Positions 11,290 to 64,000 of a stretch of DNA of 64,000 nt are shown in pieces. The notes beneath the pieces are model-generated. The model was not told the DNA's origin and did no database searches. It saw only the letters and a list, made by a program, of their open reading frames with translations. The translations under genes were made by a program, and so were the position numbers. This DNA comes from Dehalococcoidia bacterium (GTDB lineage: Bacteria; Chloroflexota; Dehalococcoidia; GIF9; UBA5629): contig JBEKIW010000002.1 of the NCBI GenBank assembly GCA_050011565.1, forward strand, positions 96,001 to 160,000. The letters are read 5' to 3'. Position 1 is the stretch's first letter, and each line of letters begins with the position of its first letter.

Positions 11290-14200
11290 TTATGAAACCC
11301 CCTTTTTATGCTGCTTTTGCTCTGTGATGTCTTCCATGGCAAGTAATATCATCGGCTCGTGCCCCTTAACCGGCTGAATTCTGCGTGCATTGAGCAATAT
11401 CGTCTTGTGCCCGACAGTGGGGAAAAAGTGGTCAACTTCATAGTCATTAAAGTGGGCCTTCTCAGGCAAGATATCTTCCAGAAGCTCCCTTAGCTTGGGA
11501 ATATCCCATTGTCGGTTACCTATCTCGTAGATAAGTTTTTTCTCTGTGTCCTCTTTGCTGACCTGGAACATATTATAGAAGGCATTGTTTGCCGAGATAA
11601 TCCGAAGGCCTCCGCTTAACACTATCAGCGGCTCACGCACCGTATTTGCGATGCTCTCGGCAACCTCCTGGGCAGCTTCGGCTACGGCAAGCTCTTTGGC
11701 GGCTTTGGCTGCGGCAAGCTCTTTGGCGGCTTTGGCTACGGCAAGCTCTTTGGCGGCTTTGGCTGCGGCAACCTCTCGGGCAGCTTTTTTCTCTTCCGTG
11801 ATATCTACCATAGTCAATACGAGACCTTGAATGACATTTCCCACAGTGCGATAGGGCAAAATGTGCAGCGTATATGAGCGTGCGTCCTTGGCTTGCACTT
11901 CTATTGACTTCGGGACCAGCCTATCAAGCACCTTATTCAAATCTTCATCAAGTTTATCGTATAATAGGTTCGATGTTACGTGGTGGATGGGCCGGCCGAT
12001 ATCAGATTCTATAAGATTGAATATAGTGGTTGTTGCCGGGGTAAAACGCCTGATGTGCAGGTTCATGTCCAGGAATATGCTTGCAATTTGTGTGCTATTT
12101 AGCAGGTTATTCAAATCATCATTCGTCTTGGACAATTCAACGGCTTTCTCCTGAAGCTCTGCGTTCACCGTCATCAATTCCTCGTTAGTCGATTGCAATT
12201 CCTCTCTGGATGTCTCTAGCTCCTCGTTGGTGCTTTGGAATTCTTCGTTGGATTTTTCCATCTCTTCCCGGGTGGTAGAGAGGGTTTCTTTGCTCAATGC
12301 CAGTTCCTGATCCAGTTCCACAATACGCTTATGGCTCCTTGTTGACCGAGCGCGCTTCGTTTTGGTTGGTGCTTCCGGCTCAGGAGAAGTCACAGTTTGG
12401 AACATGACGCTACATAACTTTTGCATTCCCGCCAAGCCAGCGATTGGACTTACTTTCAGGTCAACTAACTGGATATTGTCATCCTGCTTCACTTCAATCT
12501 TATAGCAGCTAGTTTCTTGGTCTTTAAGGAACACTGTACGAAGAGCAGACGCTAGTTCCGCCCTTAGACCTTCTCGAGCCATATCCAGGATGTTCATTTT
12601 AAGCGGTCCGGTTGGAAGTTCCAGGTACTTGCCGGTTTGGCCATGAACGTAGAGCACATCGTAGCTTTGGTCGACGACAACACATGCCGGGGTGTATTTC
12701 TGCAGAAGTATTTTGTTGACTATTTCCGCAATGTTGAATGGCTTGGCCGTATCGCTTTTCGGCTCGCCGCCTGTCTCTGCGGGCTCTCTCTGAAAAGCTA
12801 TAGGGCCAATTTGCATCTGCTGCTTCTTTAGAAGAGTCACTTCCCTGCGTTGGTAGATCTTCCATCTTTTATCAAGAACCGAGAAGAGGTCTGAGTGTTT
12901 TCCTATGGTCTCAGCAGAGCCCAGGAAGAGAATTCCATCTTTGTTTAAGGAGTAGTATAGAAGAGGCACTAGCCTCGCCTGCAAATCGCTGTTCAGGTAG
13001 ATCAGCAGATTGCGGCAGCAAATCAAATCCACCTTTGAGAAGGGAGGGTCCTTGATGATGTCTTGAACAGCGAAGATCACCCTTTCTCTGATTTCTCTTT
13101 TAATAATATATGTATCCTCAGTCTGTATAAAGAAGCGGTGTAAACGTTCCGGCGACACATCAGCACAAATACCAATCGGGTAAATGCCACTACGGGCTCT
13201 GTCAATGGCAGCATCATCTATGTCTGTAGCAAAGACCTGTATATCGATGCCTTGATTCAGCTCACCCAGACACTCTATGACAATCATGGTTATAGAGTAT
13301 GCCTCCTCGCCGGTGGCACAACCGGGAACCCATATTCGGAGCGGTGATCTTGAGGACCTCTCGGAAATCAAGGTTTTCACACGGCTCTTAAGAGCCACAA
13401 AAGCTTCTTTGTCCCGGAAAGACTGGGTAACGCTGATTAGTAAATCGCTAAAGAGAGCTTGCGCTTCCGCCGGGTGCTGCTCCAGAAAGCTAACATATCT
13501 TGCAATATTGTCTATCTGGTTAATGGTCATTCGCCTCTCTATCCGCCGGTTCAACGTTGCTGGTTTGTATTGGGAGAAGTCATGCTTGGTGTACTGCCGC
13601 AATAGCAAGAAGACCTTTGCTAAATAATCGGGGAGTGTGACTGTAGCTGTTGGACGTTCTTCAATAAATTCCTTTTTAGAGTATCCGGCAAGCGAAAACA
13701 ACCGAGCCGGCATTTCTGACGGGCGCAAAACAAAGTCGGCAAGACCGCTATCTATCGCTTGTCTCGGCATCCCATCATACTTAGCTGAACTGGGCTCTTG
13801 CACTATAGCCAGACCAGTTTCACCCCTTATTTCTCTTAAGCCCAGGGTACCGTCCGTTCCGCTTCCAGAAAGAATGATGCCAATAGCCGCTCTCCCCCTA
13901 TCTTGAGCCAATGCCCGAAGAAAGAAATTAATGGGGAGCCTTAAGCCATGTGGTTCTGGTATTTCCAACAAAATCAAATTACCGTGTAATATGCCCATGT
14001 TCTTGTTTGGCGGAATGACGTATATATTGTTAGGTTTGACTCCCATCCCATCTTTTGTCTGATAGACAGGCATATCCGTACATTTCTGCAAGAGTTCAGG
14101 CAGTATGCTGACGTGGGACGGGTCTAAATGTGATACCACGACAAATCCCATACCGGTGTCTGACGGCATATTAGTAAATAGTTCTTGCAAAGCCTCCAGC

Positions 14201-14358
14201 CCACCAGCAGAAGCCCCTATACCAACGATAGGAAAATCGGTTTTCCCTTTCTGGCTGAGAGGAGTAGCTTTTCTGACCGGTACAGTTGCAGGGGATTCCT
14301 CTGTTTTGCTAGAGGCCTGCTTGGTTTTTGGCTTCGCCCTGTCTCTTTTTATCGCCAT
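11290..14358 (-). CDS. CheB methylesterase-CheR methyltransferase-PAS fusion
   Basis: GASAGG, SHL, GSGTDG (CheB triad); GCATGEEAYS, ATDID, CRNLLIY (CheR); EELQSTNEEL coiled coil; PAS domains. Confidence 0.95.
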   Translation of the reverse strand: MAIKRDRAKPKTKQASSKTEESPATVPVRKATPLSQKGKTDFPIVGIGASAGGLEALQELFTNMPSDTGMGFVVVSHLDPSHVSILPELLQKCTDMPVYQTKDGMGVKPNNIYVIPPNKNMGILHGNLILLEIPEPHGLRLPINFFLRALAQDRGRAAIGIILSGSGTDGTLGLREIRGETGLAIVQEPSSAKYDGMPRQAIDSGLADFVLRPSEMPARLFSLAGYSKKEFIEERPTATVTLPDYLAKVFLLLRQYTKHDFSQYKPATLNRRIERRMTINQIDNIARYVSFLEQHPAEAQALFSDLLISVTQSFRDKEAFVALKSRVKTLISERSSRSPLRIWVPGCATGEEAYSITMIVIECLGELNQGIDIQVFATDIDDAAIDRARSGIYPIGICADVSPERLHRFFIQTEDTYIIKREIRERVIFAVQDIIKDPPFSKVDLICCRNLLIYLNSDLQARLVPLLYYSLNKDGILFLGSAETIGKHSDLFSVLDKRWKIYQRREVTLLKKQQMQIGPIAFQREPAETGGEPKSDTAKPFNIAEIVNKILLQKYTPACVVVDQSYDVLYVHGQTGKYLELPTGPLKMNILDMAREGLRAELASALRTVFLKDQETSCYKIEVKQDDNIQLVDLKVSPIAGLAGMQKLCSVMFQTVTSPEPEAPTKTKRARSTRSHKRIVELDQELALSKETLSTTREEMEKSNEEFQSTNEELETSREELQSTNEELMTVNAELQEKAVELSKTNDDLNNLLNSTQIASIFLDMNLHIRRFTPATTTIFNLIESDIGRPIHHVTSNLLYDKLDEDLNKVLDRLVPKSIEVQAKDARSYTLHILPYRTVGNVIQGLVLTMVDITEEKKAAREVAAAKAAKELAVAKAAKELAAAKAAKELAVAEAAQEVAESIANTVREPLIVLSGGLRIISANNAFYNMFQVSKEDTEKKLIYEIGNRQWDIPKLRELLEDILPEKAHFNDYEVDHFFPTVGHKTILLNARRIQPVKGHEPMILLAMEDITEQKQHKKGVS
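11653..11787. repeat. In-frame 27-bp tandem repeat (3 near-identical and 2 degenerate units)
   Basis: GGCT(A/G)CGGCAAGCTCTTTGGCGGCTTT at 11680, 11707, 11734; degenerate units at 11653 and 11761; encodes KAAKELA(A/V)A. Confidence 0.9.
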
Positions 14359-14425: not shown

Positions 14426-14456
14426 CAAGGGCACTAAAGCTACTTTAGTGCCCTTG
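14426..14456. repeat. Perfect 14-bp inverted repeat
   Basis: CAAGGGCACTAAAG-cta-CTTTAGTGCCCTTG. Confidence 0.85.
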
Positions 14457-14814
14457 CTTCACCCCCACATCTCCTTAAACTTGCACTAAGAGGGGGAAAG
14501 AGTTCTGCCAAACCTAAATCGAATTCCGAGGGCGCTACATGGAGGTTTTCCACATCCGTCTCCAGTATCACCCGGGTTATGGAGACCCCTTCATGACCAT
14601 CACACCGGTCCAAGACCGCGTCGTACATTGAGCGTTCTAGTGCCATCAGGTCAATGCCCAAGCCTGATGTTGCATTGGCCTGGGGATCAAAATCTACCAC
14701 CAGCACCTTGTTGCCGCTTTTGGCGAGGTCGCCAGCGACGCTGAGGTACGAAGTGGTCTTTCCACCACCCCCTTTGTGACTAGTGAAAGCTATACATTGC
14801 GCAGTTTTTGACAT
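14440..14814 (-). pseudogene. Truncated ParA/Soj-family ATPase (N-terminal half only)
   Basis: KGGGGKTT deviant Walker A and VLVVDFDPQANATSGLG; similarity ends after APSEFDL; no Walker B (DxPP) region. Confidence 0.75.
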
Positions 14815-14818
14815 TCTC

Positions 14819-15010
14819 TTAGCTTACCTCGGTTTTTGACAGCCACACATCAACGGTATCTTTACGGAAACGTAGCTGCCGGCCTACCTTGCTTACTGGT
14901 ATTTGCTTCTGCCTAACTAAACGATAAACACTTGCCTTTGAAATTCGCAGATATTCGGCAAGCTCGGGGGTAGTCATCAATTCTGACTTTCTTTCGTTTG
15001 AAACTTCCAT
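14819..15010 (-). CDS. Excisionase-like HTH (HTH_17/MerR-type) DNA-binding protein
   Basis: LMTTPELAEYLRISKASVYRLVRQKQIP..KVGRQLRF. Confidence 0.85.
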   Translation of the reverse strand: MEVSNERKSELMTTPELAEYLRISKASVYRLVRQKQIPVSKVGRQLRFRKDTVDVWLSKTEVS

Positions 15011-15430: not shown

Positions 15431-15596
15431 GAGATTGCCACGCGGAGTTTATCCTGAGGGAGATTCTTCGCGGCGTTTACCCTGAGTGAGATTCTTCAGT
15501 CACTTCGTTCCTTCAGAATGACATTAACGAAGGGCTCAGAATGACAGTGGGGAAAGGGCACAGAGAATGGCAGAAAAGGCGAAGGGCTCGCAATGA
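15431..15596. repeat. Nested REP-like repeat cluster
   Basis: Three GAGATT heads (15431, 15460, 15488) and three AATGA(C) tails (15522, 15545, 15596). Confidence 0.7.
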
Positions 15597-15615
15597 TAGG
15601 AAGGAGTTGCTAAGC

Positions 15616-15646
15616 AAACAGGCTCCGAGGTTATCGGAGCCTGTTT
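15616..15646. terminator. Intrinsic terminator-like hairpin downstream of the glutamate synthase gene
   Basis: AAACAGGCTCCGA-ggtta-TCGGAGCCTGTTT, about 20 bp past the stop. Confidence 0.75.
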
Positions 15647-15665
15647 TATTTGAGCAATGCAAAAT

Positions 15666-17258
15666 CTAGCTGGTGAGAATCTTGACTGCTTCTTTCCTGT
15701 AGGCATCCATGAGATAGGGTATGCCGGTGACCTTGGCACACTCATCGGTCAGAGACATCAGCTCATTGCGCGTAATCGCGGGCACGCTGAAGCACCTGGC
15801 GCCGGCCATCAACTGCTGTAAGCCAACCTTGATTTTGTCGGAGTAGCTGTAGATACCGATGGCGCCCAGTGGGATATTCTTCATTTCATTGGCGCCGACA
15901 ATGCTCTTTACCTGCTCGTAGCAGACGAATATTTCCTCGGGCGTCGAGCCGAACTGACTGACCGTATTCGGCAGCTTGCCATCCTTTATCCACTCGGCGA
16001 TGTTTTTACCGACCATGCCCGGAATCATCAAAGCCCGGCCCATGCACACCGCCTTGACAAAAGGTGCACCCAGAGCAAGTGCCTTGAATACACCGTCTTC
16101 GCTGCTGAAACCGCCGGCAAAGGCCATATCAGGCGGCCGTTGGCCTTTATCAGATAGTATCTTGGCGAACTCGTAAGCCGCCGAATGGAGATAGAGGCTG
16201 GGAATGCCCCACTCCTCCATCATCCGCCACGGGCTCATGCCGGTGCCACCCCCAGAGCCGTCTATGGTGAGCAGGTCTATTTTGGCTTTTGAGCCCCATT
16301 TTATAGCCATGGCCAGCTCACGCAGGCTGTAAGCGCCGGTCTTCAAGGTAACGCGTTTGAATCCCAGATTTCTCAGTCGCTTAACTTCGGCATAAAATCC
16401 TTCCTCATCGATGAAACCGAGGCGGCTGTGCCTTTCAAATTCCTTGAGTGCGCCTTCCCTGAAAGCTGCCTGATTAATGGGGTCCGAGGGGTCGGGGGTG
16501 ATGATATAGCCGCGCTTCTGTAGCTCCAGAGCTCGCTCCAGAGAGTTGACCTTGATTTCGCCGCCGATACATTTGGCGCCCTGCCCCCATTTCAATTCAA
16601 TGGTCTCAATACCGTGCTTTTTGATGATATATTCAGCGGTACCCAATCTGGTATCCTCGACGTTCATCTGCACCAGTATTTCACCGAAGCCCTGATGATA
16701 CCGCCGGTACACCTCTATTCGGCGGTCCATATCCGGCGCTGCAATAACTTTGCCCTTGGCATCGCGCTCCAGACGCGGGTCGATACCGCAAACATTTTCA
16801 CCGCAGACAAGCGTAACACCGCTAATGGCAGCGCCGACGGCAAAATGCTCCCAGTTTTTGCGCGCTATCTCTGTAGAGCCCAGAGCGCCGGTGAAAATAG
16901 GGACCTTCATCTTGACCTTTATGTCCCAGCCGTAATCGGTCTCTGTATTTACTAGCGGGAACAGAGCGGTATCCGGGTCGCCAACAACACCCTTGGGCAG
17001 CCCCCTGGCTCCCAGGGCATAGCCTTGGATGTTCAGATGCGAGTAATCAACGGGGTAGTCCTTATCGGCGCCGGCGGTTATTTCACCAAAGGGTCCAGGA
17101 TAGATTAATTCCCGTCCGCGGAAAGTGGCTTTGAAGACTTCACAGTTCCCCGTGCAGCCGTCGAGGCAGCGGGAGCAGATACCGCTTCCGGGGGCTACAC
17201 TTCTGGAGCGATTGGCGGTCCTGGTGGCTTCGTCTGAATTCGGTCGTTGTAAATTCAT
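15666..17258 (-). CDS. Glutamate synthase FMN-binding-domain family protein (stand-alone, N-terminal Cys cluster)
   Basis: IELKWGQGAK, IDGSGGGTGMSP, FKALALGA, MGRA motifs; CSRCLDGCTGNC; no glutaminase domain. Confidence 0.9.
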   Translation of the reverse strand: MNLQRPNSDEATRTANRSRSVAPGSGICSRCLDGCTGNCEVFKATFRGRELIYPGPFGEITAGADKDYPVDYSHLNIQGYALGARGLPKGVVGDPDTALFPLVNTETDYGWDIKVKMKVPIFTGALGSTEIARKNWEHFAVGAAISGVTLVCGENVCGIDPRLERDAKGKVIAAPDMDRRIEVYRRYHQGFGEILVQMNVEDTRLGTAEYIIKKHGIETIELKWGQGAKCIGGEIKVNSLERALELQKRGYIITPDPSDPINQAAFREGALKEFERHSRLGFIDEEGFYAEVKRLRNLGFKRVTLKTGAYSLRELAMAIKWGSKAKIDLLTIDGSGGGTGMSPWRMMEEWGIPSLYLHSAAYEFAKILSDKGQRPPDMAFAGGFSSEDGVFKALALGAPFVKAVCMGRALMIPGMVGKNIAEWIKDGKLPNTVSQFGSTPEEIFVCYEQVKSIVGANEMKNIPLGAIGIYSYSDKIKVGLQQLMAGARCFSVPAITRNELMSLTDECAKVTGIPYLMDAYRKEAVKILTS

Positions 17259-17301
17259 TTTTCTTTACTCCTTTTTATTTTTGGTTTTTGCTTTTTTATC
17301 T

Positions 17302-18075
17302 TTAATTTATCTTTACCGGTATTCCCCTTTCCTTAAGGTATTTTTTGGCTTCAGGTATGGATATCTCACCGAAGTGAAAGATAGATGCCGCTAAAACTGC
17401 TGAGGCTTTGGCAACGGCTACCGCTTCATAAAGGTGCTCTAATGTACCGGCACCGCCTGAAGCCGTGACCGGTATACCTACGGCTTCGGCTACGGCTTTG
17501 GTCATCTCCAAATCGTACCCTTCCCTGGTACCGTCGGCATCCTTGCTGGTGAGCAGAATTTCGCCGGCACCCATTTTCTCCACCTTTTTTGCCCACTCGA
17601 CTATGTCCAGGCCTGTTGCTTCCGTGCCGCTTTTAACCACCACCTCAAGTCGGGGGCGACCGCTATTCTGCGGATTTTTAATGCCGTCGATGGCGACGAC
17701 AAGCCTCTGCTTGCCGAACTTCTTCGAGGCTTCCTTTATCAGGTCGGGATTTCTCACGGCAGCAGTGTTGATTGAGACCTTATTGACTCCGAGGTCGAAT
17801 AACTCTTTCATGTCTTTGGTGTCTCTGATGCCTCCGCCGACAGCAAAGGGGATGGTGACCTTGTCAGCGACTCTCTTGACCCATTCCAATCTGGTCCCCC
17901 TGTCTTCGGCACTGGCCATAATATCAAGGAATACCAGCTCATCCGCACCCTCCCGGCAATAAGCTTCGGCAGCCTCCACCGGGTCTCGGGCGTCCCTGAG
18001 GTTGACGAACTTTATGCCCTTGACTACCCTCCCCTCCTTGACATCCAGACAGGGTATGACTTTTACCACTTTCAA
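17302..18075 (-). CDS. hisF: Imidazole glycerol phosphate synthase cyclase subunit HisF or divergent paralog
   Basis: IPCLDVK.GRVVKG, DELVFLD, VGGGI, KVSINTAA, GEILLT, ASGGAG, LAASIFH. Confidence 0.85.
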   Translation of the reverse strand: MKVVKVIPCLDVKEGRVVKGIKFVNLRDARDPVEAAEAYCREGADELVFLDIMASAEDRGTRLEWVKRVADKVTIPFAVGGGIRDTKDMKELFDLGVNKVSINTAAVRNPDLIKEASKKFGKQRLVVAIDGIKNPQNSGRPRLEVVVKSGTEATGLDIVEWAKKVEKMGAGEILLTSKDADGTREGYDLEMTKAVAEAVGIPVTASGGAGTLEHLYEAVAVAKASAVLAASIFHFGEISIPEAKKYLKERGIPVKIN

Positions 18076-19076
18076 CTCATAACCTCCTCAAATTTAATTA
18101 ATTTCTGATATTCCGTGACCGTGCTCATGGCGTAGTTGTCGGCTTCTATACCCGCTTCCTCGGCGGCGGCTACGGGATTAAGTCCGCCTATGAAAATCAT
18201 TCCAATTCTGTTGAGCTCGACAGGGATTTCGCAGACCGGTTCGCTGGTGTTACCCATTATCATTAGCCCGCCTAAGCCTGCCTCTTTCAATCTGGAAACA
18301 ACGTCTTGAGCTGTAGGAAGGCACAAAGCAGGTATTTCGCGAAAGTTAGCCAGAATTTTACCGTTACCCGTTTTAGCAGCATCTCTTACCGAGGTCATCC
18401 TGGCTCTGATAAAAACCTCGGAAGGGTCGAGCGAGGAACCGGCATAGTGAATGAGCTCTACGAAGCGAAAAGGCTGGTGGTCTCGAATCTGCAGTATGCC
18501 ACCGAATCGGGAGTCCATGGGAACGCCGGCCTTGAGCAGCGTGCCGTTTATAACGATACTGCATACCGTTGCCAGCCCTATTTTCCCGCGAGGTACGATT
18601 AACTCACCCAACGGCTCTCCAGCACCAGCCACCACCACCAGGTCGCTAACACAAATACCGGCGTCGAAAATTGGCTTCATTGCCTGTAGCGCCTTTTCGA
18701 ACTTGGCTTTTGGAAAAAAGGAAACGTTAACTGGAACCAGACCGGTGCCTTTCTCCCAATCGAAATAAGTGCGGAAGGCGAGTAGTTCGATCCTGGCAAT
18801 GGCGAAGCCAACTTTGTCTCTAACCAGGGCATTGCTCAGTTCCTCAATGCCGAGTTCGGTGATTAACCGGCCGTCCCTGCTGACAAGCCTAGTCAAACCG
18901 CGCTCATCCATCAGTTTCAGGTGGTATCTGACGGCTCTTTCACCCAGGTTAACGCCGCGGTTTTTTAAATGTCTACCGATGACTCTGGCTCCCAACGGTT
19001 GCTGGGAATCGTTCAGTATCTTAAGGATAAGGTGCTCTTTTCGCTTAACTTCTTGAGTTTCGATGCCAATCATCAA
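18072..19076 (-). CDS. nrpR: NrpR-family nitrogen regulator (wHTH + one NRD/DUF128 domain)
   Basis: PLGARVI..LGERAVRYHL..MDERG, TVCS..INGTLLKAGVP, YAGSSLDP, GGLNPVAA. Confidence 0.88.
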   Translation of the reverse strand: MMIGIETQEVKRKEHLILKILNDSQQPLGARVIGRHLKNRGVNLGERAVRYHLKLMDERGLTRLVSRDGRLITELGIEELSNALVRDKVGFAIARIELLAFRTYFDWEKGTGLVPVNVSFFPKAKFEKALQAMKPIFDAGICVSDLVVVAGAGEPLGELIVPRGKIGLATVCSIVINGTLLKAGVPMDSRFGGILQIRDHQPFRFVELIHYAGSSLDPSEVFIRARMTSVRDAAKTGNGKILANFREIPALCLPTAQDVVSRLKEAGLGGLMIMGNTSEPVCEIPVELNRIGMIFIGGLNPVAAAEEAGIEADNYAMSTVTEYQKLIKFEEVMS

Positions 19077-19106
19077 AATAGCTACTGAAGTTGATATTTA
19101 AGGCCG

Positions 19107-19124
19107 TAGGAAACCGTTTGCCTA
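19107..19124. promoter_or_regulatory. Putative NrpR operator
   Basis: TAGGAAACCGTTTGCCTA = GGAA-N6-TGCC, one mismatch to the Methanococcus NrpR operator GGAA-N6-TTCC; directly downstream of the -10 box. Confidence 0.7.
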
Positions 19125-19152
19125 TTATATAGATGGCCGAAAGACCTGTCAA
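19124..19152 (-). promoter_or_regulatory. Sigma70 promoter of the nrpR-hisF-glutamate synthase operon
   Basis: Minus strand TTGACA (19152-19147), 17 bp, TATAAT (19129-19124): perfect consensus. Confidence 0.85.
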
Positions 19153-61932: not shown

Positions 61933-62157
61933 TTATTTCCACGCGCCCATGCCGGGCCACAGGAAACGATGCGGCGCCAGACCAAGAGCGGCCACGAGAC
62001 ACCAGATAATCACGCCGATAAAGGCAGCCAGCACTGACCATTTCCCCACCATCGCCAGTTCTTCCTCTCTGCCGGAAAAGACCCAGAACGTAATAAAGCC
62101 GATTGGTGGGAAGAAGAAAGACGCAATGTATACTAAATACTGAACCCAACCTAACAT
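61933..62157 (-). CDS. Small membrane protein
   Basis: SFFFPPIGFI..W; AAGGAGG SD. Confidence 0.75.
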   Translation of the reverse strand: MLGWVQYLVYIASFFFPPIGFITFWVFSGREEELAMVGKWSVLAAFIGVIIWCLVAALGLAPHRFLWPGMGAWK

Positions 62158-62437
62158 GATGAACCTCCTTATGTGTTTGTAAAAAATTATATACAGTCCT
62201 TCATTAAAAAGTTATAAATTAAGCCTGAAGAACCTTGAAAAACTATTACATTTTGAAATGTCTTTATTCCGGCGGACAATTACGAAAATCCATGAAGTAG
62301 CCCTAAGACATCAACCCACCCACACCCATGTCTTTTATGGTGGGCCAGTGTGGACAGTTCCCGAATTAGTATTTGAGAAGAAGCAATTCATTCCAGTTTT
62401 GCAGCAACTGCTTTAACCCCATAAAAAGCCACTAGAC

Positions 62438-63115
62438 TCAGATAACACCTGTCTTTTTTAGATAGCGAAGTAAGGATTTGCTTTGTCTTGCCCTTTGTTC
62501 CATTTGCTCTCTTAGTACAAATCCCTGATTCTGCGTAGCGTAATTCCTATGTAGGACATCAATGATTTTTTCATAGATTTGTGTCAACTTGTTTAATTGT
62601 TGCTTATTTACTGCATGTCCCCGACCAGCAAAGGAAAAAAGTTCGCCCGCAAAATTACCCCAATCCCTTATAGGGGCTATGGGCTCACCACGCTTCTTAT
62701 TTATTGCTCTCTCGTCAATATGTTCAAGGGCATCTCGTAAATCTATGTCCTCACCAAATATCTCCGTGAATTTAGTGTGTATGTTTTTAAGATCAGAGCT
62801 TGGTAGCTCCTTACATAAACGCTTTAGAAGTTTATTGATTTGACCGATACAATCAAAATAGAAATGATAATCACAATAGAGTCTTAACAAGCTGAAGTCC
62901 CGACTCCGGGTTCTGGAAGCATATGCGGCAATTTTTACAGAGCTCATTTCCTCGCGAAGATTCTTGTCTATATTTTTACGGGTTCTTTGGATTCTTGCAG
63001 TTTGCATGATTGCCCCATTTATATAGTGCTCTAAATGATAGAGAATCAAAGAGGCACTTCGGTTATTGGGAGCACTATCGATATGTCCCCAATACTTCCA
63101 AGCTAACTTATACAT
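62438..63115 (-). CDS. Hypothetical protein (possible HEPN-like helical protein)
   Basis: 225-aa ORF with GGGAGG SD; RDALEH motif (R-x4-H). Confidence 0.65.
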   Translation of the reverse strand: MYKLAWKYWGHIDSAPNNRSASLILYHLEHYINGAIMQTARIQRTRKNIDKNLREEMSSVKIAAYASRTRSRDFSLLRLYCDYHFYFDCIGQINKLLKRLCKELPSSDLKNIHTKFTEIFGEDIDLRDALEHIDERAINKKRGEPIAPIRDWGNFAGELFSFAGRGHAVNKQQLNKLTQIYEKIIDVLHRNYATQNQGFVLREQMEQRARQSKSLLRYLKKTGVI

Positions 63116-63393
63116 ATAAAACCTCCCTTAACTTCAATTATAGTTGGCGAATCAGCGGGTAAACAAGTTGGTGAAATGTTTTCTGCGGAGTAATACGTAA
63201 AAGTTTGATTGGGGCAATCTTGTGTAGGGAGAGGAGGCGTGGCTGGATTGTATTATAAAAGAGAATCCTGTGGCGATGTGAAGCTTATAAACATTAGTAA
63301 CTTCTTTTTGGACAACTCATAGGCGTATAATGGTGTTAGTTGAGAGACTCTTAAATGGTATGGGGATAATTTGATTTATGAGGTGGTACAAGG

Positions 63394-64000
63394 ATGAAAG
63401 AGAAGAAGTGCTTCGTCATTATGCCGTTTTCTAAGACTGAGTCGTGTAGTCAGCAAACATGGACAAAGACATATGAAGAGATGATTAAGCCAGCCATTAC
63501 TGGAAGCAAACTAGGTTTTACTTGTGAGAGAGCTAAGCCAAGAACTGGGAGTCTAATAAGAGACATCTTGACCAAGTTGAATGTTGCTGATGTTGTGATA
63601 GCCGACCTCACTGATAGGAATCCCAACGTCTTTTATGAATTGGGTGTCAGGCATACACTGAGAAACCGTACTATTCTTATTGCCCAGGATTTTGAACATG
63701 TCCCATCCGACCTGCAACCATATGGAGTAATTGTGTATGGGAGAGGACAAACTGGACGTGATGACTTCAAAAATAAAATAAGGGGAATACTACGGGAGAT
63801 GATTGAAGCTCCTGACAAACCAGATAGTCCTGTAGCTGATTTCTTAACGGAGACCAATCGGGCACTACTCTCACAAGAGAAATCGGCCAACCTTAGGAAG
63901 TTAACGGCATTTCTTTCTGAATTATCGTATAACGCAGACACAGCCGATAATATCCTCGTCTTGGCAAAGCAAAGCTTAGAGCGAAAGCAGAAGAATAGGC
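63394..64000 (+). CDS. Nucleoside 2-deoxyribosyltransferase/TIR-like domain protein (3'-partial; not in ORF track)
   Basis: Manual translation MKEKKCFVIMPFS..ADVVIADLTDRNPNVFYELGVRH..VPSDL; open to the window end. Confidence 0.8.
   Translation, partial: MKEKKCFVIMPFSKTESCSQQTWTKTYEEMIKPAITGSKLGFTCERAKPRTGSLIRDILTKLNVADVVIADLTDRNPNVFYELGVRHTLRNRTILIAQDFEHVPSDLQPYGVIVYGRGQTGRDDFKNKIRGILREMIEAPDKPDSPVADFLTETNRALLSQEKSANLRKLTAFLSELSYNADTADNILVLAKQSLERKQKNR

Follow-up and report, generated by a model that had tools for sequence, protein, structure and literature searches.

A stretch of 64,000 nucleotides from a Dehalococcoidia bacterium was analysed (contig JBEKIW010000002.1, here contig C2, positions 96001–160000; hereafter the window). 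The source genome is 2.0 Mb in size and 99% complete. Three genes on the minus strand of the window encode an NrpR-family regulator (NrpR2), a paralog (HisF2) of HisF, the cyclase subunit that belongs to imidazole glycerol phosphate (IGP) synthase, and a 530-aa homolog of the glutamate synthase FMN barrel (FMN530). The features are given below in window coordinates, in the order of transcription.

19124–19152, minus strand: sigma-70-type promoter (TTGACA-17-TATAAT) of the nrpR2-hisF2-FMN530 unit, with 12/12 consensus matches
19109–19122, minus strand: putative NrpR-type operator, GGCAAACGGTTTCC, immediately 3' of the -10 box, with one mismatch to GGAA-N6-TTCC
18072–19076, minus strand: nrpR2, NrpR-family regulator with winged-helix and NRD1/2 domains
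17302–18075, minus strand: hisF2, paralogous IGP synthase cyclase subunit, carrying K5, N98, Q123 and K255
15666–17258, minus strand: FMN530, 530-aa divergent homolog of the glutamate synthase FMN barrel, with a partial match to PF01645
15616–15646, minus strand: perfect 13-bp hairpin, probable terminator, about 20 nt past the FMN530 stop

An earlier note on this stretch described nrpR, hisF and the FMN-domain gene as one transcription unit with no other his gene nearby, and this observation was confirmed in every part. The hisF2 TTG start and the nrpR2 stop share the overlap TTGA, and the 43-nt spacer between hisF2 and FMN530 contains an AAGGAG ribosome-binding site. The true start of nrpR2 is likely the ATG at 19073. 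In the whole 4.1-kb region six promoter-like sites were found against 3.6 expected, and the only perfect one is that at 19152–19124. The minus strand of 15560–15680, which includes the terminal hairpin, folds at -33.2 kcal/mol (z = -5.17), and none of 200 shuffled sequences equalled this value. The U tail of the hairpin is short, and a simple terminator scan left it unlisted. No other his gene is present on the same contig, and the remaining his genes are located on contig C3.

According to a TIGR00735 profile search, the genome encodes two HisF proteins over the cut-off, and it has one HisH. HisF2 scores 338.4 bits (337.5 in the genome scan) against the equivalog cut-off of 294.55. The canonical protein, HisF1, is the better of both with 383.5 bits, and possesses R5 and D98. 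The hisF1 gene and the sole hisH are located near 160–164 kb of contig C3, 2.5 kb apart. Thus, the window copy is not the only hisF of the genome, and the supposition of a second HisF in the earlier note holds. Elsewhere on C3, hisA is found at 267 kb, and hisD and hisB at 10–12 kb. The genes around hisH and hisF1 are in the order ferredoxin (fdx), hisH, FAD oxidoreductase, GATase-2, hisF1, GltB-FMN and GXGXG, which is a split archaeal-type glutamate synthase (GOGAT) operon. On its 3' side are nrpR1, a GlnR-like response regulator, two amt genes and a P-II (glnK) gene. The identity between HisF2 and HisF1 is 57%, and that between NrpR2 and NrpR1 is likewise 57%. Glutamate dehydrogenase (GDH) was not found in a search of this genome. 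The interleaved order of hisH, hisF1 and the split GOGAT genes is conserved across families of the class (L013:4384–16104; L018, L041 and L166). In the conserved canonical clusters, the genes after GXGXG are nrpR1 or that of a GlnR-like regulator, and then amt, P-II and glnA.

The distribution was examined in a class sample of 251 Dehalococcoidia genomes, including the source genome. HisF2-type genes were defined by E <= 1e-100, and show 67–85% identity to the window copy. They are present in 36 of the 251 genomes, FMN530 is present in 52, and both are present in 27. Among the 51 other genomes with FMN530, the identity of HisF to the window copy is bimodal, at either 67–85% or 51–61%. A FastTree phylogeny of 153 rows, of the kind that the earlier note had called for, was constructed from 60 sequences taken at random out of 109 unique HisF2, 43 Dehalococcoidia HisF1 and 50 single-domain representatives. 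The representatives (245–275 aa) were taken from the best 150 of a representative search, and 100 fusions or fragments were dropped. All HisF2, the window copy included, and two of the representatives form a single group with a support of 97. One of these representatives is the annotated HisF of Dehalococcoides mccartyi, including strain 195 (P0142), with the residues I4, K5, V97 and N98. In three complete genomes of one genus (1.4–1.5 Mb), a hisF2-like gene followed by an nrpR2-like gene is present besides the canonical cluster. These Dehalococcoides-type hisF2-like genes score 239–271 bits, under the HisF cut-off, and neither FMN530 nor GDH is adjacent to them. A HisF from a metagenome-assembled genome (MAG) labelled Spirochaetales (P0123; 58% identity, V4 and V97) is also located inside the clade, for which lateral transfer or wrong binning of the contig could account. 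Two HisF2 copies occur in several genomes (L030/L048 of G118, L023/L047 of G135, L049/L050 and L054/L057). In G118 and G135 both HisF copies are of the HisF2 type, and neither HisF1 nor HisH was found in these two genomes. In G169 (G169:C5, L033), where the canonical cluster is also present, the HisF2 frame is interrupted by a TAA in frame, and several open reading frames (ORFs) stand in place of FMN530 as well as of NrpR2. This copy of the module appears to be decaying.

The neighbourhood of hisF2 was compared in the best 80 named loci from GTDB species genomes, which were picked by HisF2 similarity alone. All 80 are from Dehalococcoidia or Chloroflexota MAGs. The next gene on the same strand after hisF2 is FMN530 in 45 loci, GDH in 15, a DAO-type FAD oxidoreductase in seven and a NuoE-like gene in six. 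The remaining seven slots are held by NrpR2 (two), GlnA (one), other genes (three) and a contig end (one). The DAO-type and NuoE-like genes mostly lead to FMN530. FMN530 or GDH lies directly 3' of hisF2 in 60 loci and within range in 71, and neither is in range in nine. The GDH assignment was confirmed by Pfam in 6/6 loci tested. NrpR2 is the upstream same-strand neighbour in 53/80 loci, and HisH is within range in 1/80. The earlier note had asked whether this neighbourhood and the substitutions R5K and D98N are conserved together. The arrangement of nrpR, hisF and the GltS-like gene is conserved across many families, whereas the two substitutions are not a conserved signature, as described below. 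In L026, L027 and L046, purSL and purQ, which encode FGAM (formylglycinamidine ribonucleotide) synthase and its glutaminase, adjoin hisF2. AICAR (5-aminoimidazole-4-carboxamide ribonucleotide), the by-product of the cyclase, feeds purine synthesis.

The window HisF2 possesses K5 and N98, whereas its own HisF1 and the solved HisF structures possess R5 and D98. D11, E46, K99, D130 and E172 (E167 of Thermotoga maritima) are kept. Both the replacements and the retained catalytic and channel residues had been read correctly by the earlier note. Q123 is kept as well, and K5, N98 and K255 replace conserved contact residues. Among the 109 unique HisF2 sequences, D11, K19, E46, K99, D130, E172, D181, G182, G207 and G208 show no or almost no variation. 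D11 is found in 107/109 (the other two are gaps), and D130, D181, G182, G207 and G208 are found in 109/109. The phosphate-site positions among them are those which we take to be the equivalents of the T. maritima sites. Position 5 is K in 53 sequences, R in 51, S in two and Q in one. Position 98 is D in 61, S in 17, N in 14, T in six, G in five, A in five and H in one. K5 and N98 are thus ruled out as a mark of the HisF2 clade.

All columns of the alignment were then scanned for positions which are conserved at 90% or more in 86 canonical HisF and at less than 75% in HisF2. Exactly four columns were obtained, 5, 98, 123 and 255, which correspond to R5, D98, Q123 and R249 of T. maritima. Positions 123 and 255 had been picked beforehand as ones to check; the criterion was nonetheless applied to every column. 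According to the available parts of three papers (10.1101/565457, 10.64898/2026.05.29.728626, PMC9052757), fD98–hK181 is a conserved and critical salt bridge, fR249–hW123 is a conserved cation–pi pair, fQ123 recognises glutamine in the HisH site, and fR5 is counted among the conserved allosteric residues. The four relaxed columns are therefore all documented HisH-contact or gate residues. As a control, R5 and D98 are both present in 42/43 of the Dehalococcoidia HisF1, and the exception is the sole HisF of the HisH-less genome G219. Five positions are re-fixed in the HisF2 clade (G30R, T78A, A97V, A131G and L191M), and K4 is changed to V or I. T78 is listed as a conserved allosteric residue in the available part of one of these papers (10.1101/565457). 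D98 is kept in 12/20 HisF2 from HisH-positive genomes and in 12/14 from HisH-negative genomes, and the idea that the loss of D98 tracks the absence of HisH was ruled out. Since the loss of D98 is not tied to the absence of HisH, HisF2 may be independent of HisH even where HisH exists.

HisH was searched for with TIGR01855 (E <= 1e-25), and 221 of the 251 genomes, including the unpublished G244, gave matches. According to the complement of the listed genomes, HisH was not found by this profile in 12/36 genomes with HisF2, against 18/215 of the others. In all of the 12 genomes, every TIGR00735 match is of the HisF2 type. Completeness reaches 90% or more in nine of the 12. In six of the 12, no HisH-like match above 27 bits was found. 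The his pathway was checked in six of the 12: HisA and IGP dehydratase are present in 6/6, and HisD is over the cut-off in 5/6. The sixth HisD is a fragment at a contig end. In the five best genomes with HisF2 only (97–100% complete), the canonical GltB-FMN was not found and GATase-2 was found in 0/5. The same canonical-cluster queries readily match relatives at 65–84% identity. These results indicate that the whole seven-gene canonical cluster is missing, not hisH alone. As the 12 genomes possess only HisF2-type HisF and no detected HisH, and the rest of the pathway is kept in the six checked, their histidine pathway would have HisF2 as its sole cyclase.

HisF2 thus passes the HisF cut-off and keeps the catalytic aspartates and both phosphate sites, whereas the marks of a HisH dimer, namely the contact residues and a hisH gene in the genome, are not shared. 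The occurrence of HisF2 as the sole HisF in 12 genomes, together with the other his enzymes in the six tested, argues that it acts in histidine biosynthesis, and HisF2 appears to be independent of HisH. The use of free ammonia without HisH, which the earlier note had raised, is accordingly the option favoured by the comparative evidence.

Ten of the 18 HisH-less genomes without HisF2 were inspected: six have no HisF, two of one genus have a divergent sole HisF, and two are incomplete or unusual. The two of one genus are G219 (G219:C14, L163) and G156 (G156:C18, L168), and in each single HisF the HisH-contact residues are changed. The HisF of G156 has V4, K5, A98, H99, E123, Q172 and N255, and its gate residues are altered too. 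It is possible that this genus represents a second, independent HisH-free lineage with the same decay. In G186 (G186:C13, L170), whose genome has no TIGR01855 match, an ORF of ~540 aa has a HisF1-like domain as its C-terminal half. The HisF of G132 (L167) is HisF1-like by BLAST.

FMN530 matches PF01645 with 55.9 bits (cut-off 20.4) at the profile positions 187–309 of 369 only, and no NCBIfam match was found. By hhalign against GltB, a probability of 98.6% was obtained over 292 columns, in which the QGAK, DGxxGxTGxxP and (A/S)GG motifs are aligned. The identity to GltB-FMN of the same genome is ~25%. An N-terminal CX2CX3CX3C motif (C28, C31, C35 and C39) is invariant. FMN530 has no amidotransferase, central or GXGXG domain. 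It is also devoid of the ferredoxin-like N-terminus and the C-terminal Cys cluster of GltB, whose Cys motif lies outside the aligned region. The best 120 matches of the family are 85–98% identical, at least 7,999 relatives were scored, and the source records label the family 'FMN-binding glutamate synthase family protein'. A single-sequence search of solved structures gave no match. Profile matches to de novo designed TIM barrels were rejected as spurious, which left no solved relative by sequence. The AlphaFold2 model (pLDDT 70, pTM 0.76) retrieved generic FMN-dependent TIM barrels, such as hydroxy-acid oxidases and IMPDH (inosine monophosphate dehydrogenase), by Foldseek. As GltS (7mfm_G) was found only at rank 42, this result does not discriminate. 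According to Pfam, NuoE/NuoF-like, 2Fe-2S and DAO-type proteins flank FMN530 in relatives, and glnA and nadE are nearby in some loci.

The earlier note had stressed that the FMN protein has no amidotransferase of its own, and indeed no GATase-2 partner is present in the five HisF2-only genomes checked. In four of these five (97–100% complete), GDH was not found either. As GDH, canonical GltB and GATase-2 were not found in these four, FMN530 is the only detectable candidate for glutamate formation there. Moreover, the presence of GDH in the same slot after hisF2 implies an equivalent role of FMN530 in linking ammonia and glutamate. From homology, context and the absence of alternatives, FMN530 is most likely an ammonia-dependent, glutaminase-free glutamate synthase. 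Four of the 12 HisF2-only genomes do not have FMN530, and three of these four have GDH beside hisF2. FMN530 was not found in nine of all 36 HisF2 genomes. The channelling of ammonia between HisF2 and FMN530, which the earlier note had considered, therefore gains no support: FMN530 is dispensable for HisF2-only genomes, GDH takes its place at 15/80 loci, and HisF does not generate ammonia. A complex prediction for HisF2 and FMN530 (both as alignments), run without controls, gave a score of 0.00, which weighs neither for nor against a complex.

NrpR2 matches PF01995 with 274.9 bits and PF08461 (HTH_12) with 80.5 bits. GGAA-N6-TTCC was used as the operator motif, which we take to be the consensus of Methanococcus NrpR. 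An NrpR-type site is located 25–65 nt upstream of nrpR2 in 34/72 unique related upstream regions. Perfect sites are present in 13 of the 72 against about 0.8 expected (background 0.011 per 260 nt). NrpR2 thus has the domains of NrpR, and the operator shows one mismatch here and is conserved in relatives, with reference to the presumed consensus. Autoregulation of the operon by NrpR2 through the predicted operator is therefore likely. The two best genome-wide matches to the extended operator consensus are the window site and C3:175234. The latter (GGAAGCCGTTTTCC), the second-best match, lies immediately upstream of an ORF of 228 aa on the minus strand and some kb past the amt and P-II genes. 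In the genome-wide search, the region upstream of the canonical fdx-hisH operon gave no site within two mismatches. Thus, co-regulation of both modules by one operator type lacks support.

The analysis shows how the genes are laid out, their paralogy and distribution, which residues are constrained, and that the operator is conserved. We infer the use of ammonia, the reaction of FMN530, and the direction and signal of the regulation. We consider it somewhat probable that nrpR2-hisF2-FMN530 is a free-ammonia module, in which a HisH-independent cyclase and a glutaminase-less glutamate-forming enzyme are autoregulated by NrpR2. The module would be conserved in Dehalococcoidia, and would draw nitrogen straight from ammonia without glutamine amidotransfer. 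HisF2 would be a true IGP synthase cyclase, which converts PRFAR (phosphoribulosyl-formimino-AICAR ribonucleotide) and NH3 into IGP and AICAR, and the HisH glutaminase would be dispensable. FMN530 would form glutamate from 2-oxoglutarate, ammonia and reducing equivalents; it occupies the same genomic slot as GDH. The electrons may enter at its Cys4 Fe-S site, and in many relatives through the adjacent NuoE/NuoF-like and 2Fe-2S proteins. NrpR2 probably acts as a repressor of its own operon at an operator that overlaps the start of transcription, with 2-oxoglutarate as its probable signal. Two nitrogen regimes would then exist in parallel, a glutamine-dependent one (hisH and hisF1 within GOGAT, nrpR1, amt and glnK) and a free-ammonia one (nrpR2, hisF2 and FMN530 or GDH). 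Both sets coexist in this genome, and some lineages would have retained the free-ammonia set alone.

Precedents for a HisH-free cyclase are found in the available parts of the literature. HisF alone accepts ammonium in vitro (PMC11350729), and a Klebsiella pneumoniae hisH mutant at high ammonium provides a precedent (PMC5919458). A Corynebacterium glutamicum hisH deletion mutant grows without histidine, and besides this organism no IGP synthase has been reported to be amidotransferase-free in vivo, as far as the accessible text of that review goes (PMC3896937). Among the papers returned by the literature searches, none describes the HisF2 paralog, the FMN530 family or a histidine pathway of Dehalococcoidia in which HisH is absent. 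In the portions available of two D. mccartyi systems papers (PMC3986231, PMC5102406), hisF, glutamate synthase and NrpR are unmentioned in the main text. The module varies an enzyme system that is already known and does not constitute one of a new kind, and the functions proposed for it come from comparative genomics.

Several points weigh against the free-ammonia module. The canonical HisF of Escherichia coli and Salmonella cannot sustain growth without HisH, according to the part available of the same review (PMC3896937), and thus the use of ammonia in vivo requires adaptation or high ammonium. The absences of genes rest on MAGs, though five of them are 97–100% complete with the entire seven-gene cluster missing. 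The retention of D98 in 12/14 HisH-less cases may reflect another role or another partner. The invariant gate residues E46, K99 and E172 also fit the docking of another ammonia donor, and PdxT, a HisH-like glutaminase, is encoded up to three genes upstream in 8/80 loci. Glutamate could be derived from transaminases or uptake instead of FMN530. Finally, methanogen NrpR derepresses under nitrogen limitation, which is awkward for a module that is most useful at plentiful ammonia.

The gate residues and PdxT lead to a rather unlikely explanation, in which HisF2 is fed by another glutaminase (PdxT, PurQ or an unrecognised class-I amidotransferase) docking on a remodelled bottom of the barrel. The retention of D98 in 61/109 sequences agrees with it, as do the clade-fixed changes of K4 to V or I, A97V and T78A, which are at or near the docking face and the channel. 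PurSL is found up to three genes upstream in 5/80 loci, besides PdxT in eight, and purSL and purQ abut hisF2 in the three loci mentioned above. These linkages are, however, not consistent when compared with 60/80 for FMN530 or GDH. The four HisH-contact positions vary freely and are not re-fixed for a new partner, and PdxT and PurQ already have obligate synthase partners. It is unlikely, too, that HisF2 is a nitrogen-regulated isozyme still pairing with HisH, and that the genomes without HisH are explained by faulty assembly or by histidine auxotrophy. Such an isozyme would pass the HisF equivalog cut-off as HisF2 does, HisH is present in 24/36 HisF2 genomes, and the window copy retains Q123. 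However, D98 is lost in 8/20 HisF2 of HisH-positive genomes, including the source genome. Nine of the 12 HisH-less genomes are at least 90% complete, and the seven-gene cluster is missing entirely in the five tested. The retention of HisA, HisB and HisD argues against auxotrophy.

FMN530, or GDH elsewhere, might instead deaminate glutamate oxidatively and pass the ammonia to HisF2 in a complex, giving a glutamate-dependent IGP synthase. If true, a redox enzyme would functionally replace HisH on the remodelled bottom face of HisF2, in a nitrogen-transfer complex of an undescribed kind. The gate residues are conserved, and the slot after hisF2 is held by two unrelated enzymes which both interconvert glutamate and 2-oxoglutarate plus ammonia (60/80 directly, 71/80 in range). 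We regard this as quite improbable. It requires two unrelated folds docking on one face, while 9/36 HisF2 genomes have no FMN530, 9/80 loci have neither enzyme in range, and the Dehalococcoides-type hisF2-like gene is accompanied by nrpR only. In addition, FMN530 is the sole glutamate-making candidate in four genomes, which favours the synthetic direction. A role of HisF2 outside histidine biosynthesis, on another substrate, as for WbuZ and AglZ ('HisF2') of sugar amidation, is very improbable. The clade-fixed G30R (loop 1) and A131G (next to D130) are near the active-site face, and the Dehalococcoides-type relative is below the HisF cut-off with its 239–271 bits. Against this, HisF2 misses both the WbuZ cut-off (250.5 versus 299.7) and the AglZ cut-off (222.7 versus 310) and passes that of HisF, and the residues checked at the catalytic and phosphate sites do not vary. 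Twelve genomes have no HisF of another type, and HisA, HisB and HisD are kept in the six of them that were checked.

Some further features were observed in the window. Downstream of the operon (14440–15010, minus strand), a 63-aa excisionase-type HTH_17 protein and a 124-aa ParA-like P-loop ORF are encoded. The latter spans the N-terminal part of its Pfam models only, and the pair may be a mobile-element remnant. In a 1022-aa ORF at 11290–14358 (minus strand), AAKELA-type repeats follow one another around residue 870. The G+C content at 62001–64000 is 0.405, against ~0.50 across the rest of the window.

For the way in which ammonia is channelled and allosteric signals pass between a glutaminase and a synthase, IGP synthase is a textbook case. 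If the free-ammonia module exists as proposed, the HisF2 clade would be a natural evolutionary experiment, in which an obligate heterodimeric enzyme turns autonomous and four contact residues are repeatedly mutated. It would also affect the metabolic reconstruction of Dehalococcoidia, since auxotrophy would otherwise be called where hisH or GOGAT is missing. FMN530 is an uncharacterised, very strongly conserved enzyme of a predicted FMN/Fe-S type, and is probably the sole glutamate-forming step in some genomes. As a related pair of hisF2-like and nrpR genes is present in cultivated D. mccartyi, the idea is testable.

Compared with the canonical HisF:HisH of T. maritima and E. coli, HisF2 has the same family and fold (252–303 bits to solved HisF structures), and shares D11/D130, the gate residues E46, K99 and E167 (T. 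maritima numbering) and the phosphate sites. It differs in that hisH is not linked, the contacts R5, D98, Q123 and R249 are relaxed, and five changes are clade-fixed. For HisF of C. glutamicum, direct use of ammonia in vivo has likewise been proposed, whereas that organism has one hisF and a functional hisH in the his operon, according to the text available (PMC3896937). HisF2, in contrast, forms a separate paralog clade in a putatively nitrogen-regulated operon, and hisH is naturally absent in a third of the carriers. WbuZ and AglZ of glycan amidation are also HisF paralogs encoded outside the his genes; in contrast to HisF2, they have a HisH paralog as partner and sugars as substrates. FMN530 is homologous to the glutamate synthase FMN barrel, including that of its own split archaeal-type GltB, with shared motifs. 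In contrast to GltB, it carries an N-terminal CX2CX3CX3C motif of its own, and partner genes for GATase-2 or GXGXG are lacking. GDH, with a fold and cofactor unrelated to those of FMN530, occupies the same position after hisF2 in 15/80 loci. The NrpR of Methanococcus maripaludis is a 2-oxoglutarate-sensing repressor of nif and glnA. NrpR2 has the same domain architecture and a GGAA-N6-TTCC-type site at its promoter, but is bacterial and the first gene of the operon that it probably controls. Two NrpR paralogs in Dehalococcoides have been ascribed to probable lateral transfer in the available part of an earlier paper (PMC1852104).

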